This document shows, one piece after another, positions 13,897 through 61,977 of a stretch of DNA of 64,000 nucleotides. Origin of the DNA: Desulfatiglandales bacterium (GTDB lineage: Bacteria; Desulfobacterota; DSM-4660; Desulfatiglandales; Desulfatiglandaceae). The notes under the pieces were generated by a model. The model was not told the DNA's origin. It did no database searches and was given only the letters and a program-made list of their open reading frames with translations. The DNA lies in the NCBI GenBank assembly GCA_963662465.1, contig OY759599.1, forward strand, positions 1,344,001 through 1,408,000, written 5' to 3'. The position numbers and the translations under genes were made by a program. How positions within the stretch are numbered: position 1 is the stretch's first letter; the number at the start of each line of letters is the position of its first letter.

Positions 13897-13944
13897 CTCG
13901 TTCCCATGCTCCGCGTGGGAACGGACAACGGAGGCTCCGCGTCC
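13897..13944. repeat. REP-like hairpin family A (GTTCCCAYGCTCYGCGTGGGAAC)
   Basis: Copies near 13899, 17878, 20872, 21423, 22942, 23992, 51748 (reverse) and 61824; 48 bp identical between 13897 and 17876. Confidence 0.85.
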
Positions 13945-17860: not shown

Positions 17861-17977
17861 CAAAATTTTTCCTCCCTCGTTCCCATGCTCCGCGTGGGAA
17901 CGGACAACGGAGGCTCCGCGTCCCGTGAGAGCGTCTTCCAGCCGCGAAAAAGCACTCACTGGGGGTTCGCGCGGGCT

Positions 17978-51108: not shown

Positions 51109-51124
51109 AGAACGGGTGGGCGGT

Positions 51125-51712
51125 ATGACCGATTATTACCAGAAAAATTATCTTGCGTACCACGATCAGACCTTCAGTATCGACCCCGCATCTTTTCTTT
51201 CACCGCTGGTGCGCGCTATGGCTCCCCGCGGCAGCATCCTGGATGTGGGGTGCGGTTCCGGGCGCGATATGCGGTGGCTGAAAGACCGGGGGTTCCGGCC
51301 CACGGGTTTTGAGCGGTCAAGCGGCCTGGCCGCACTGGCGAGGGAGCATTCAGGGTGTTCGGTTCTGGAAGGGGATTTTGAGGCTTATGATTTTTCGGGT
51401 ATGGACGTGGATGCGATCCTGCTGGTGGGGGCACTGGTGCATGTGCCGCACGAGCGGTTTTCGAAAATACTTTCAAATATTGCTCAGGCGTTGAACCCCG
51501 AAGGCCATGTGCTACTCACCCTGAAAGAAGGGGTGAAGACCCGGGCCGCTGCCGGGGGTCGGGTGTTTTACCTCTGGGAGGATGGGGCGCTCAGTGCCGT
51601 TTTTGAGCCGCTTAACCTCACAGTGGTGGATTTTTCCCGGCAGATTTCTAAAGTCAGAAAGAGCGATGTGTGGTTGGGGTATGTGTTGAAGAAACAGGGC
51701 TTCGCGGATTAA
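51125..51712 (+). CDS. Class I SAM-dependent methyltransferase
   Basis: ILDVGCGSGRD motif I. Confidence 0.85.
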   Translation: MTDYYQKNYLAYHDQTFSIDPASFLSPLVRAMAPRGSILDVGCGSGRDMRWLKDRGFRPTGFERSSGLAALAREHSGCSVLEGDFEAYDFSGMDVDAILLVGALVHVPHERFSKILSNIAQALNPEGHVLLTLKEGVKTRAAAGGRVFYLWEDGALSAVFEPLNLTVVDFSRQISKVRKSDVWLGYVLKKQGFAD

Positions 51713-51771
51713 CGTGAAATAGAGCATTTTGTTGTTCCCCCGGGCTGGTTCCCACGCAGAGCATGGGAACG

Positions 51772-53674
51772 GTGCGCCTGTGAAGGCGCTTTATCAGTGC
51801 GGTGAAAGTCCGTACCGGAGTATGCCATAGCTCCGTAGCCGAAGGTAACTGCGTCGCCGCGAGGCGGGGTGGAGAGCAACCGGAGGCGAAAAGTCAGTCC
51901 GTAGGATGACGAACCCGATTCGGTGTCATGTGGTGGCGAGCCTACCGTTCCATGGTGAAGCCTGAAACTCACAGACCACGCTGTAATGGCGGTTAAAGCG
52001 ATGGTTTGACGGCATGGTATGTTTGGGGTCGGAATGACTGGAAGGTAAAGCGAGATAAGCAGGGAGACCTGTCTCTTGGGGTGACAGGAGGCAGGAGTCA
52101 GAGTCCTCATAGTACCGTAGCGACAGAACGGTCCTGCTAACAAGGCTTACGGCGTGAGACCAGTACCCGCCGCCTGCGTCGGATACCGGGTTGTGAAAAG
52201 CGCGGATAGCAAAACCGTGCCGAGGGAAGGAGGATAGGAAGATAGATACGGAAAGGTCATATAGATGCAGCTAAATCAAGCAGTCTCGGCAGTGTTGGAA
52301 ACAACTAAACGCGAGGCAGAAACCCGATGGGATTGGGTGGAAGCATCGGTGTGGACGGAACGTATGTTGGCAGCCCTGGGTAACGGGGTGAAAGGTGGTA
52401 AATGGTACAGTTTGATGGATAAGGTGTTCGCCTTGTCGACGCTGGAAGCGGCTTGGGGACGTGTCAAAGCCAATAAAGGAGCGGCAGGGATAGACCGTAT
52501 CAGCATAAAGCGCTTTAAGGAGCAGGCGGAGAAATACCTTGCCGAACTGCATGAAACCTTGAAAGCGGGAACGTACCGACCGGAAGCGGTAAAACGGGTA
52601 TACATTCCGAAAAGCGACGGCAAACAACGCCCGCTGGGGATACCCACGGTCAAAGACCGGGTAGTGCAGGCAGCGGTTAAAATGGTTATGGAGCCCATAT
52701 TCGAGCATGAATTTCTGCCGATGAGTTACGGCTTCAGGCCGCAAAGAGGTTGCAAGGACGCGTTGCGAGAAGTAGACGCGCTTATTAAGGAAGGCTACAC
52801 CTTCATACTGGACGCCGACCTGAAAAGTTACTTTGATACGATTCCGCACGATAAGCTGATGCAACAAGTCGAAATGCGCATCAGCGACGGCAAATTGCTC
52901 AATCTGATTCAAATGTTCCTGAAACAGGACGTGATGGACGGCTTGGAAAGATGGACACCGACGGGTGGTTCGCCACAAGGGGCGGTAGTCAGCCCCTTGC
53001 TTGCGAATATTTACCTGCATCCTCTTGACAGCCTGATCGCGGAATCAGGTATGCGGATGGTGCGTTACGCGGACGACTTTGTTATCCTCAGCCGCAGTCA
53101 AACGGAAGCGGAGAATGCTTTGCAAAAGGTACGGGAGTGGGTACAGGCTAATGACCTGAGCTTACACCCGGACAAGACGCATCTTGGCGACTGTCGACAA
53201 AAGGGTCAGGGATTTGAATTCCTGGGATACCGGTTTGAGGCAGGAAAGCGCTGGATACGCAGTAAAAGCCGTAAAGCCCTTCGTGATAAAATCCGGGAAG
53301 AGACCCGGCGCAAACGTAGCGGAAGTATGGAAAGCATCATTGATGATCTGAACCCCATGCTTGAAGGCTGGTTTGGTTACTTCAAACACGCCTACCGCAC
53401 TGAGTTTGCGGCGGTGGATAAGTTTGTCCGCCGACGCTTACGCGCCGTATTATTGCGTCGTAACAAACGCAAGGGCTGGGGCAAAAGCCTTGAAGCCCAC
53501 CGCCGCTGGCCGAATGCCTACTTCGCGAAAATCGGGCTTTTCACTATGCATGAGGCCCGGTTAGCAGCGTGCCGATCCCGATGAGGAAACTATCGACCGG
53601 AGAGCCGTGTGCGGGAGAACCGCATGCACGGTTCGGAGGGAGGGGAGAGCCAAGAGGCTCTTTCCTACCCCTAT
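51772..53674 (+). mobile_element. Group II intron copy 1 (1903 bp)
   Basis: 5' GTGCG; D5 GAGCCGTGTGCGGGAGAACCGCATGCACGGTTC; 3' ...ACCCCTAT. Confidence 0.95.
52265..53584 (+). CDS. ltrA: Group II intron RT/maturase without endonuclease domain
   Basis: RPLGIPTVKDR, PQGAVVSPLLANIYL, YADD, X domain GWFGYF. Confidence 0.95.
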   Translation: MQLNQAVSAVLETTKREAETRWDWVEASVWTERMLAALGNGVKGGKWYSLMDKVFALSTLEAAWGRVKANKGAAGIDRISIKRFKEQAEKYLAELHETLKAGTYRPEAVKRVYIPKSDGKQRPLGIPTVKDRVVQAAVKMVMEPIFEHEFLPMSYGFRPQRGCKDALREVDALIKEGYTFILDADLKSYFDTIPHDKLMQQVEMRISDGKLLNLIQMFLKQDVMDGLERWTPTGGSPQGAVVSPLLANIYLHPLDSLIAESGMRMVRYADDFVILSRSQTEAENALQKVREWVQANDLSLHPDKTHLGDCRQKGQGFEFLGYRFEAGKRWIRSKSRKALRDKIREETRRKRSGSMESIIDDLNPMLEGWFGYFKHAYRTEFAAVDKFVRRRLRAVLLRRNKRKGWGKSLEAHRRWPNAYFAKIGLFTMHEARLAACRSR

Positions 53675-55577
53675 GTGCGCCTGTGAAGGCGCTTTATCAG
53701 TGCGGTGAAAGTCCGTACCGGAGTATGCCATAGCTCCGTAGCCGAAGGTAACTGCGTCGCCGCGAGGCGGGGTGGAGAGCAACCGGAGGCGAAAAGTCAG
53801 TCCGTAGGATGACGAACCCGATTCGGTGTCATGTGGTGGCGAGCCTACCGTTCCATGGTGAAGCCTGAAACTCACAGACCACGCTGTAATGGCGGTTAAA
53901 GCGATGGTTTGACGGCATGGTATGTTTGGGGTCGGAATGACTGGAAGGTAAAGCGAGATAAGCAGGGAGACCTGTCTCTTGGGGTGACAGGAGGCAGGAG
54001 TCAGAGTCCTCATAGTACCGTAGCGACAGAACGGTCCTGCTAACAAGGCTTACGGCGTGAGACCAGTACCCGCCGCCTGCGTCGGATACCGGGTTGTGAA
54101 AAGCGCGGATAGCAAAACCGTGCCGAGGGAAGGAGGATAGGAAGATAGATACGGAAAGGTCATATAGATGCAGCTAAATCAAGCAGTCTCGGCAGTGTTG
54201 GAAACAACTAAACGCGAGGCAGAAACCCGATGGGATTGGGTGGAAGCATCGGTGTGGACGGAACGTATGTTGGCAGCCCTGGGTAACGGGGTGAAAGGTG
54301 GTAAATGGTACAGTTTGATGGATAAGGTGTTCGCCTTGTCGACGCTGGAAGCGGCTTGGGGACGTGTCAAAGCCAATAAAGGAGCGGCAGGGATAGACCG
54401 TATCAGCATAAAGCGCTTTAAGGAGCAGGCGGAGAAATACCTTGCCGAACTGCATGAAACCTTGAAAGCGGGAACGTACCGACCGGAAGCGGTAAAACGG
54501 GTATACATTCCGAAAAGCGACGGCAAACAACGCCCGCTGGGGATACCCACGGTCAAAGACCGGGTAGTGCAGGCAGCGGTTAAAATGGTTATGGAGCCCA
54601 TATTCGAGCATGAATTTCTGCCGATGAGTTACGGCTTCAGGCCGCAAAGAGGTTGCAAGGACGCGTTGCGAGAAGTAGACGCGCTTATTAAGGAAGGCTA
54701 CACCTTCATACTGGACGCCGACCTGAAAAGTTACTTTGATACGATTCCGCACGATAAGCTGATGCAACAAGTCGAAATGCGCATCAGCGACGGCAAATTG
54801 CTCAATCTGATTCAAATGTTCCTGAAACAGGACGTGATGGACGGCTTGGAAAGATGGACACCGACGGGTGGTTCGCCACAAGGGGCGGTAGTCAGCCCCT
54901 TGCTTGCGAATATTTACCTGCATCCTCTTGACAGCCTGATCGCGGAATCAGGTATGCGGATGGTGCGTTACGCGGACGACTTTGTTATCCTCAGCCGCAG
55001 TCAAACGGAAGCGGAGAATGCTTTGCAAAAGGTACGGGAGTGGGTACAGGCTAATGACCTGAGCTTACACCCGGACAAGACGCATCTTGGCGACTGTCGA
55101 CAAAAGGGTCAGGGATTTGAATTCCTGGGATACCGGTTTGAGGCAGGAAAGCGCTGGATACGCAGTAAAAGCCGTAAAGCCCTTCGTGATAAAATCCGGG
55201 AAGAGACCCGGCGCAAACGTAGCGGAAGTATGGAAAGCATCATTGATGATCTGAACCCCATGCTCGAAGGCTGGTTTGGTTACTTCAAACACGCCTACCG
55301 CACTGAGTTTGCGGCGGTGGATAAGTTTGTCCGCCGACGCTTACGCGCCGTATTATTGCGTCGTAACAAACGCAAGGGCTGGGGCAAAAGCCTTGAAGCC
55401 CACCGCCGCTGGCCGAATGCCTACTTCGCGAAAATCGGGCTTTTCACTATGCATGAGGCCCGGTTAGCAGCGTGCCGATCCCGATGAGGAAACTATCGAC
55501 CGGAGAGCCGTGTGCGGGAGAACCGCATGCACGGTTCGGAGGGAGGGGAGAGCCAAGAGGCTCTTTCCTACCCCTAT
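53675..55577 (+). mobile_element. Group II intron copy 2 (1903 bp), head-to-tail with copy 1
   Basis: Junction CCCCTAT|GTGCG; only difference seen is T53362/C55265 (synonymous). Confidence 0.95.
54168..55487 (+). CDS. ltrA: Group II intron RT/maturase, copy 2
   Basis: Protein identical to 52265-53584. Confidence 0.95.
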   Translation: MQLNQAVSAVLETTKREAETRWDWVEASVWTERMLAALGNGVKGGKWYSLMDKVFALSTLEAAWGRVKANKGAAGIDRISIKRFKEQAEKYLAELHETLKAGTYRPEAVKRVYIPKSDGKQRPLGIPTVKDRVVQAAVKMVMEPIFEHEFLPMSYGFRPQRGCKDALREVDALIKEGYTFILDADLKSYFDTIPHDKLMQQVEMRISDGKLLNLIQMFLKQDVMDGLERWTPTGGSPQGAVVSPLLANIYLHPLDSLIAESGMRMVRYADDFVILSRSQTEAENALQKVREWVQANDLSLHPDKTHLGDCRQKGQGFEFLGYRFEAGKRWIRSKSRKALRDKIREETRRKRSGSMESIIDDLNPMLEGWFGYFKHAYRTEFAAVDKFVRRRLRAVLLRRNKRKGWGKSLEAHRRWPNAYFAKIGLFTMHEARLAACRSR

Positions 55578-55620
55578 AGTGCGAACGCGAAGTCAGCACC
55601 GATTTTCACGTTAATCCGCG

Positions 55621-55761
55621 ATGAACCAAAATATTTTACTCATCGACGATCTATTTCGTTCAGGCGCCACGCTCAAAGTTGCCACTCAAATAATGCTCGA
55701 AAAAGCAAATGCCAAAAAAGTATGTGTATTAACAATGACAAAAACTAGGATAAACCGGTGA
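55621..55761 (+). pseudogene. C-terminal remnant of ComF-like phosphoribosyltransferase
   Basis: Manual translation NILLIDDLFRSGATL...KKVCVLTMTKTR; GTGA overlap with next gene. Confidence 0.7.
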
Positions 55762-61092: not shown

Positions 61093-61404
61093 TAAGCGAC
61101 CACCCGTTCAATGGGTGGTTTTGATATCGCCCCTATAAGGGGCCTATTGCTGGCAACGCCTGAAGGCGTAGTTTCGTAGCCACTATTGCTTGCAGCCCCT
61201 AAAGGGGCGTTACGGTTGCTTTTTCACGTTGTCTTCGATCTGATCCGCTTCTACCTGATTCTTGATGTACTTTTTTATCTCTTCTTCGTTTCTTCCAACC
61301 GTGTTGACATAATACCCTTTCGCCCAGAAATGCCGATTGCCTTTCTCTCTGAACTCCGGGTGCCGATCAAATATCATTAGCGCGCTTTTACCCTTCAAAT
61401 ACCC
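61093..61404 (-). mobile_element. IS200 tnpA 3' fragment with end hairpins
   Basis: KGKSALMIFDRH...HFWAKGYYVNTVG.NEEEIKKYI.NQ; hairpins gcccctataaggggc and gcccctaaaggggc. Confidence 0.8.
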
Positions 61405-61593: not shown

Positions 61594-61977
61594 GGCTACG
61601 GACACAAGCCGGGACAAAATGTTTGAACACGATTTAAAAGATTATAATGATGGACAGGATTGCAATTGGCGAACAAAATGGTGTAAAGGGGGGAAAGGAA
61701 CTTGTACGGATGCCGTCTCTTAATCCTGTCCATCTAAGAAATCCTGTTCATCGTGTTCAAGACAATGAGGATGCCCACAGTGCCTGATAACCCTTTGCCC
61801 GTTTTTGAAAACTATAAAAATCACGTTCCTACGTTCTGTGTGGGAATAGATTACAGTAAGGACCTGGTTAAGCTGTCCCGCTTTGTGTCCGTAGCCCCGA
61901 CCGTATGCGTCAAAGAGATCATTTACGCTTGAACATAAGCGCAATAAACGGGCAGCATCTTTTTGAAAGGAAACCAG

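Follow-up and report, generated by a model that had tools for sequence, protein, structure and literature searches.

The window analysed here is a stretch of 64,000 nucleotides of contig OY759599.1 from a Desulfatiglandales bacterium (positions 1,344,001 to 1,408,000, forward strand), and it contains two group II introns inserted at a repetitive extragenic palindrome (REP). The introns lie head-to-tail, the second copy directly abutting the first, are 1903 nt long each and differ at a single base, intron position 1591. Both start with GTGCG and end with TAT, as in bacterial mobile group II introns (5' GUGYG and 3' AY), and their domains V and VI (D5/D6) match Rfam RF00029 with 62.4 bits at a gathering score of 40; a bulged branch A is predicted at 53667 from the Rfam alignment. 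The first intron starts one base past the REP hairpin. Excision of both introns in silico restores GTTCCCACGCAGAGCATGGGAACG/AG (a slash marks the insertion point throughout), which consists of a hairpin with a 10-bp stem and one further base, and GTTCCCACGCAGAGCATGGGAACG is the reverse complement of the REP consensus given in an earlier note on this DNA, as that note had reported. The features of the locus are listed in Table 1.

The intron-encoded protein (IEP) contains a reverse transcriptase (RT) domain (RVT_1, 1.5e-41) with an intact YADD motif and a maturase domain (GIIM, 6.4e-18). It carries nothing past the maturase, and no endonuclease domain is present. Among solved structures its best matches were RTs of class C (IIC) introns, namely GsI-IIC (222.6 bits) and 7uim (202.7 bits), the latter of which we take to be the Eubacterium rectale IIC RT, followed by 6me0, presumably T.el4h, with 177.1 bits and LtrA with 147.6 bits. 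Identity to GsI-IIC amounts to about 45%, a rough estimate made by eye from the alignment. From the comparisons described below, we consider it likely that a group II intron without endonuclease has recently inserted twice in tandem at this locus and that its lineage retrohomes to the 3' edge of REP-type hairpins.

Table 1. Features of the intron locus and of empty REP sites in the window (EBS and IBS, exon- and intron-binding sites; TIR, terminal inverted repeat; MITE, miniature inverted-repeat transposable element; ORF, open reading frame).
Feature	Position	Strand	Remarks
Left TIR GGATTAACGTGAAA of the MITE-like element	51706..51719	+	right copy 55604-55617; encloses the REP and both introns
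REP family A (REP-A) hairpin	51748..51770	+	GTTCCCACGC-AGA-GCATGGGAAC; 10-bp stem, one C.A mismatch here, 3-nt loop
IBS1 GGAACG, last six bases of the 5' exon	51766..51771	+	complementary to EBS1
Group II intron, copy 1	51772..53674	+	1903 nt; sequence, Rfam, blastn
CATGT, EBS2 candidate of the earlier note	51927..51931	+	strand of an internal helix with 52013-52016
EBS1 hairpin, domain I	51935..51962	+	GGC-GA-GCC, 11-nt loop, GGT-GAA-GCC; RNAalifold
EBS1 CGTTCC, copy 1	51946..51951	+	covariation; copy 2 equivalent 53849-53854
EBS3 T	52022	+	pairs with A55578; copy 2 equivalent 53925
IEP, copy 1 (439 aa)	52265..53584	+	RT with YADD, maturase; ORF, domain matches
Domains V and VI, copy 1	53600..53674	+	AGC triad 53603-53605; Rfam alignment
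Group II intron, copy 2	53675..55577	+	1903 nt; ORF 54168-55487; D5/D6 55503-55577
First two 3' exon bases AG	55578..55579	+	A55578 = IBS3
Empty REP-A site, CATGGGAACG/AG	13897..13922	-	inferred leading-strand template
Second empty REP-A site	17876..17901	-	same orientation as 13897..13922

The genome is available as a single contig of 8.16 Mb, and a blastn search detected 13 full-length copies of the intron at 12 sites. Eleven of these sites belong to one REP family, REP-A, and are occupied in the same phase, GGGAAYG/AG, which bears out the proposal of the earlier note that the intron homes into a single REP family. REP-A is a short, GC-rich dispersed palindrome found at about 100 loci genome-wide. 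Within the window, the REP 26-mer occurred 5 times when up to 3 mismatches were allowed (0.00 expected from 100 shuffles) and 10 times with a looser core pattern; the eight copies counted in the earlier note were thus an approximate figure that was not reproduced exactly. The two empty CATGGGAACGAG sites that it placed on the minus strand at 13897-13908 and 17876-17887 are present as described.

Twelve of the intron copies differ mutually by no more than 2 substitutions, and 12 have an intact 439-aa ORF. The copy at the twelfth site, GGTCATGCGAATG/AA, which is not a REP (genome 2868022-2869931, minus strand), has a broken ORF, with 11 nt inserted and 4 nt deleted, and its protein match is split between frames. 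Between -10 and +1 this site agrees with the REP site at 9 of 11 bases, CATG being kept at -10 to -7, and it is preceded at a distance of 7 nt by a 7-bp inverted repeat (ATGACCT...AGGTCAT). The flanks of the copies are unrelated past about 150 nt (identity about 25%), while the sites at 2293020 and 6533869 have about 100-150 nt of upstream flank in common. Judged from these flanks, the copies are separate insertions from an apparent burst, and the spread seems recent because the copies are nearly identical. These 13 near-identical copies at 12 sites are indirect evidence for splicing and retromobility.

To define the guide sequences, we used 80 loci encoding relatives of the IEP (47-67% identity), placing the intron boundaries with nhmmer against the ends of the present intron. 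Covariation was scored in 55 distinct domain I sequences, with exons shuffled among introns as control, and a consensus fold of domain I was calculated with RNAalifold from 29 sequences. Intron positions 175-180 paired with exon positions -1 to -6 in 53/54, 50/55, 50/55, 52/55, 52/55, and 41/55 relatives, respectively, compared to about 22-28 in the shuffles. This EBS1 lies within an 11-nt loop at the tip of its hairpin, a terminal position that the loop also has in the alignment of Rfam RF02001; the earlier note had correctly read CGTTCC as EBS1 in a hairpin loop. Across the relatives EBS1 changes along with the local REP variant. Intron position 251 paired with exon position +1 in 50 of 50 relatives (39.6 in shuffles); this EBS3 is T where +1 is A (the window and the loci L025, L075/L076, and L108) and G where +1 is C.

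For a second guide, the earlier note had suggested CATGT as EBS2, pairing with GCATG in the upstream exon. The positions it gave for CATGT, for CGTTCC and for the AGC in D5 were all correct, but the EBS2 assignment did not survive. CATG (51927-51930) forms a helix with 52013-52016 inside the intron that shows compensatory two-sided changes, in 10/29 sequences for the pair 91/187 and in 5/29 for the neighboring pair 90/188. Furthermore, among the 55 relatives no intron column paired with exon positions -7 to -40 above noise; the best column reached 40/55 and had no run of neighboring columns. CATGT was therefore ruled out as EBS2 by the covarying intramolecular helix together with the missing exon covariation. 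The covariation shows an intron that reads GGAACG by EBS1 (CGUUCC, 175-180) and A at +1 by EBS3 (U251), without an EBS2.

The orientation of occupied and empty sites was compared relative to replication. The cumulative GC skew is lowest at 5.76 Mb, where a DnaA-family gene (5768458-5768937) is located, and highest at 1.78 Mb; 5.76 Mb was taken as the origin. In total, 41 oriented REP target sites were tested. Nine occupied sites were co-oriented and two anti-oriented, compared to 7 and 23, respectively, of the empty sites (Fisher p=0.0012), which corresponds to an occupancy of 9/16 on the inferred lagging-strand template vs 2/25 on the other strand. The two empty sites of the earlier note have the disfavored orientation (inferred leading-strand template). 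The genome has two full-length DnaA-family genes; about 30 further weak matches derive from a multi-copy 240-aa ORF, probably the helper ATPase of an insertion sequence (IS). The strand bias fits an IEP without endonuclease, and introns of this kind that use the replication fork for priming are described with such a strand pattern (PMC4424553, PMC5894124). It also fits a target that folds out of single-stranded DNA.

Pairing with EBS1 and EBS3 does not by itself account for the distribution of the copies. Outside REPs, the genome contains 987 GGAACG/A sites, all of them empty, and among the fork-co-oriented sites 0/10 non-hairpin CRTGGGAACG/A sites were occupied, compared to 9/16 with a REP hairpin (Fisher p=0.0039). 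As all 987 non-REP sites and the 10 longer sites are empty, the palindrome's 5' arm, upstream of -10, should hold an extra determinant. The comparison shows the seven paired bases to be insufficient, with the REP context upstream of -10 also needed.

These data bear directly on the model of the earlier note, according to which the intron is of IIA/IIB type and selects REPs purely by EBS1-IBS1 and EBS2-IBS2 pairing (CATGT/GCATG), the hairpin being irrelevant. Its EBS1 is correct, the D5 triad is AGC, and the single non-REP site retains CATG at the positions where an EBS2 would read it. However, CATG belongs to a covarying helix within the intron, no column pairs with exon -7 to -40, the ten co-oriented non-hairpin sites containing the full CRTGGGAACG/A are empty, and relatives with quite different exons share only the hairpin and the spacing. 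We therefore regard selection by two-site pairing as very improbable.

A role of the hairpin is also indicated by the relatives, whose genomes are labeled Proteobacteria, Desulfobacterota, Acidobacteriota, Planctomycetota, Chlamydiota, Verrucomicrobiota and others. A hairpin was scored when the minimum free energy (MFE, DNA) in the last 32 nt of the 5' flank was -5 kcal/mol or lower, with 192 segments from the same loci as controls. Hairpins were present in 50 of 58 distinct 5' flanks, compared to 29/192 controls (Mann-Whitney p=5.6e-23), and in 33 of the 50 hairpin flanks the stem ended 2-3 nt before the junction. While the hairpin sequences differ widely, structure and spacing are common to them, and EBS1 follows the local tail. 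In Desulfosarcina alkanivorans the target hairpin occurs in 39 copies (2 for a control pattern), and in a second genome tested in 43 copies (0 for the control pattern); in both, the copies often form close inverted pairs. The earlier note had concluded from the AGC triad that the intron cannot be of the hairpin-targeting kind, but the whole lineage is found 2-3 nt past GC-rich hairpins and uses EBS1 and EBS3 only. On this evidence the REP-hairpin habit appears to belong to the whole widespread lineage. Its mechanism would be hairpin targeting as in IIC introns, but by a longer guide, and not homing of the IIB type with two pairing sites.

Several relatives are worth describing individually. 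At locus L098, in a metagenome-assembled genome (MAG) of a delta proteobacterium, the intron sits at a near-identical REP ending in GGGAACG, but its EBS1 loop is GGATTC and only 4/6 pairs are possible; in close kin that share this loop, the exon tail is GAATCC. L098 looks like a jump to a foreign hairpin, and such a site would be permitted if the choice were led by structure. L108, at 1044-2899 of plasmid I of Cupriavidus taiwanensis STM 8555, is a family member on a conjugative plasmid, which shows a lineage that apparently travels on plasmids; its exon ends with ACCGC-gtca-GCGGTTTAGT/, its EBS1 is ACTAAA, and it has A at +1 and T as EBS3. An unpaired GTAG or CGTC tag is described at one end of most REPs (Di Nocera et al., PMC3733652), and the junction falls within the reverse complement of GTAG (CTA/C) in 11/51 relatives and within that of CGTC (GA/CG) in 9/51, together 20/51. 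The window REP reads CTCG-TTCCC, which is neither GTAG nor CGTC.

In the mechanism that we propose, the intron particle would recognize the hairpin once this has folded from single-stranded DNA, in the manner supposed for IIC introns at terminators and attC sites. It would then reverse-splice into the lagging-strand template at the replication fork, and the nascent lagging strand could serve as primer; priming by the nascent strand is proposed because the intron has no nuclease of its own.

Several observations weigh against this reading. Copies at non-REP sites were named in the earlier note as a finding that would contradict homing into REPs; 11 of the 12 sites are REPs, but the twelfth is not. 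Two of the 11 REP insertions have the 'wrong' orientation relative to the fork, and origin and terminus were set from the skew and a DnaA match, while the other DnaA-family gene, at 4.83 Mb (4828139-4828624), gave the better score. Recognition of the hairpin was deduced from the occupied sites, and the same distribution would be expected if the protein read a sequence upstream of -10. Moreover, the stem of the REP contains five of the six IBS1 bases in its 3' arm. Pairing with EBS1 then requires the hairpin to open at its base, which is awkward for simple recognition of a folded hairpin. Finally, the REP sites are not mutually independent, as some share a larger composite repeat.

The tandem arrangement could be explained by a second round of the same process, in which another copy would re-enter the junction between the exon and the resident intron. 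Such an entry would be possible because the hairpin and IBS1 survive insertion and the resident intron supplies at +1 the first G of GTGCG, with which the U of EBS3 can form a wobble pair. In this model, the upstream copy should have been inserted later than the downstream one. Public sequencing runs provided contigs of organism A that cover the intron, and two further contigs are relatives, one from a marine metagenome (1206 nt, 61 differences) and one from an RNA library (651 nt, 37 differences) that spans 51757-52405, the 3' exon lying outside the compared stretch.

The REP and both introns are enclosed by a MITE-like element, the TIR pair of which occupies genome positions 1395706-1399617 (window 51706-55617). 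This is a shortened copy with one REP-A only; full copies measure 224-226 bp and contain two REP-A and two REP-B in mirror arrangement (e.g., genome 5180145-5180370). It could be argued that the introns were spread passively, carried along by duplication or transposition of the REP or MITE instead of by retrohoming, as the window copy and two others lie in this TIR-bounded composite repeat and the sites at 2293020 and 6533869 share part of their upstream flank. However, the flanks farther out are unrelated, only 20 of 100 REP-A loci lie within 260 nt of a MITE TIR, and neither the strand bias between occupied and empty sites nor the match of EBS1 would be expected. We give passive spread hardly any credence and retain retrohoming as the preferred explanation.

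Further observations concern the MITE-like element, its surroundings and the REP family. The same TIR ends bound elements of 423 bp and 1.72 kb, the latter with a 446-aa ORF, and 93 TIR-like matches were counted in the genome. Directly past the end of the MITE, at 55621-55761 of the window, is a 46-aa C-terminal fragment of a phosphoribosyltransferase, the N-terminal part of which is missing. The upstream ORF (51116-51712) encodes a complete methyltransferase unrelated to this fragment, and the idea of one gene split by the MITE was therefore rejected. REP-A is often preceded by a second hairpin, GGACGCAGAGCGTCC, with inner stem and loop in common. This second family (GGACGC-AGA-GCGTCC) stands 6-10 nt before many REP-A copies (near genome 1334424, 2293020, and 6950286), and the shared inner ACGC-AGA-GCGT gives a doublet resembling a bacterial interspersed mosaic element (BIME).

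The earlier note had called the REPs associated with a REP-associated tyrosine transposase (RAYT). No RAYT for REP-A was found in the genome: only 2 of 30 Y1-transposase (PF01797) matches are located less than 1.5 kb from a REP-A, which in neither case stands on both sides. The first of these belongs to a group of matches with open frames of 337 aa, whereas the second is a remnant of 75 aa. In the window, a Y1 (IS200-like) transposase remnant with a 75-aa open frame is located at 61210-61398 on the minus strand, with a divergent REP-A about 430 nt away at 61826.

The placement of the intron among the known classes was examined by several features. Its 5' part gave a sub-threshold match to the Rfam model group-II-D1D4-3 (27.8 bits, gathering score 32), a model that is also matched by a phage intron located behind a terminator (PMC12350094). 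For the lambda-epsilon' interaction, the rule given for IIC introns is a loop of 7-12 nt with AGG (PMC12350094). Here, the candidate epsilon' has A(A/U)GC in a terminal loop that measures about 10 nt. By size this loop fits IIC or IIA, but by sequence it agrees cleanly with neither of them, and it differs from the 4-nt bulge of IIB. Recognition by stem-loop, EBS1 and EBS3 in the absence of EBS2 is described for class C (PMC7923331, PMC4424553, PMC4748821). The present intron is inserted just past a stem-loop and has no EBS2, with EBS3 reading the 3' exon; it departs from class C in EBS1, as six positions pair instead of the 3-4 bp described for IIC introns (PMC7923331). The IIB-like, endonuclease-less classes D, E, and F (RmInt1, Cl.be.I2, Pe.th.I2) have a covarying EBS2 adjoining IBS1 (PMC3753933), and no covarying EBS2-IBS2 pairing was found here. 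These classes were excluded as a working model because of their covarying EBS2. By sequence criteria, recognition appears to be IIC-like, using the hairpin, EBS1 and EBS3, though with an EBS1 of 6 bp and an AGC triad. The lineage may be either a sublineage of class C or a sister group to it.

The family stands apart as a discrete cluster. The match amounts to 62% for four records of plasmids or chromids (Paraburkholderia, Cupriavidus), while the best other among the records listed has 41.6%, and the next intron family within this genome has 40.7% IEP identity. The only named cluster members are a Gammaproteobacteria MAG and fragments of Candidatus Kentron. A class C intron, Cu.ta.I1 (465 aa), is listed for C. 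taiwanensis in the supplement of PMC4244168; we do not equate it with the 455-aa family member on the plasmid. The intron family of this genome with 40.7% IEP identity (L105/L106, 355000-358200 and 1758750-1761950) has a GGGGC...GCCCC hairpin followed by AGTTTT upstream and a D5 of 37.9 bits. It is probably a terminator-type hairpin-seeking intron.

The similarity to class C raises the question whether this is an ordinary IIC intron that takes any terminator-like hairpin and strikes REPs only as terminator lookalikes, without specialization. Such an explanation would agree with the IEP being nearest to IIC RTs among solved structures, with recognition by EBS1, EBS3 and hairpin, and with the sub-threshold match to a model shared with the phage intron behind a terminator (PMC12350094). 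It is also in line with a table of Tobes and Pareja (2006, PMC1525189), in which the group II intron of Pseudomonas putida KT2440 has 2 of 9 copies associated with a REP. On the other hand, 11 of 12 sites belong to one REP family that has no T-run, and EBS1 is 6 nt long and matched to the REP instead of forming the 3-4 bp of IIC introns (PMC7923331). Moreover, EBS1 changes with the local REP variant across the relatives, and the family members share 47-67% IEP identity, whereas the best outside plasmid-borne IEP among those listed reaches 41.6%. We consider an unspecialized IIC intron unlikely. Placement inside class C as a REP-specialized IIC sublineage would be compatible with the favored explanation, retrohoming to REP-type hairpins.

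Beyond this, we put forward only tentatively, as the less probable outcome, that the phylum-spanning lineage is a dedicated REP parasite. It might read the folded hairpin plus a 6-nt tail that partly invades the stem, cut in many hosts exactly at the unpaired GTAG/CGTC tag, and compete or cooperate with the REP transposition machinery. If so, the intron could disable REPs, or could use single-stranded or nicked REP DNA, provided by the fork or by a RAYT, as entry and primer; REPs would then make up a fourth class of natural targets for group II introns, and they would serve as a model of DNA targeting by structure plus sequence.

REPs are among the commonest repeats of bacterial genomes, and a guide loop that tracks the local REP variant would add them to the regular intron targets. 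They would be safe harbors in which retroelements collect, and intron insertions would explain assembly breaks at REPs. The relatives provide a natural series of hairpin/guide pairs for asking how an intron particle recognizes folded DNA, and the finding may interest those who retarget introns as gene-targeting tools. A 2015 review names homing sites, terminators and attC as bacterial intron targets and ascribes hairpin targeting to class C only (PMC4424553). In the searched literature, which does not include subscription journals, we found nothing on REP-homing introns beyond one table row of PMC1525189, that of the P. putida intron.

Four known systems are close enough for comparison. The first are the terminator-type IIC introns, such as B.h.I1, O.i.I1, and GsI-IIC. 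The present IEP is nearest to IIC RTs among solved structures. Like the present intron, they have no endonuclease, use stem-loop, EBS1 and EBS3 without EBS2, and have a compact domain I (PMC4424553, PMC7923331, PMC4748821). They differ in that the target here is a REP without T-run, EBS1 pairs over 6 bp (5-7 in relatives) overlapping the stem instead of over 3-4 bp behind it, and the D5 triad is AGC. A second case, the IIC-attC introns (S.ma.I2), is likewise a sublineage specialized on one repeated non-terminator hairpin that folds in single-stranded DNA (PMC7923331, PMC4424553). That hairpin is attC instead of a REP and the short target is TTGT/T instead of GGAACG/A. RmInt1 of Sinorhizobium meliloti (class D) also has no endonuclease, is present in multiple copies in a repeated non-essential target and prefers the lagging-strand template (PMC5894124, PMC3753933); however, it reads a linear IS sequence with EBS1 and EBS2, while the present intron has a hairpin target and no EBS2. 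Finally, the REP-targeting ISs (ISPpu9, ISPpu10, ISPa11, IS1397) exploit REPs as a renewable intergenic landing pad in the same way (PMC1525189). Those are DNA transposons, whereas the present element has an RNA guide loop that matches the REP, and the specialization appears to extend to its whole lineage of introns.

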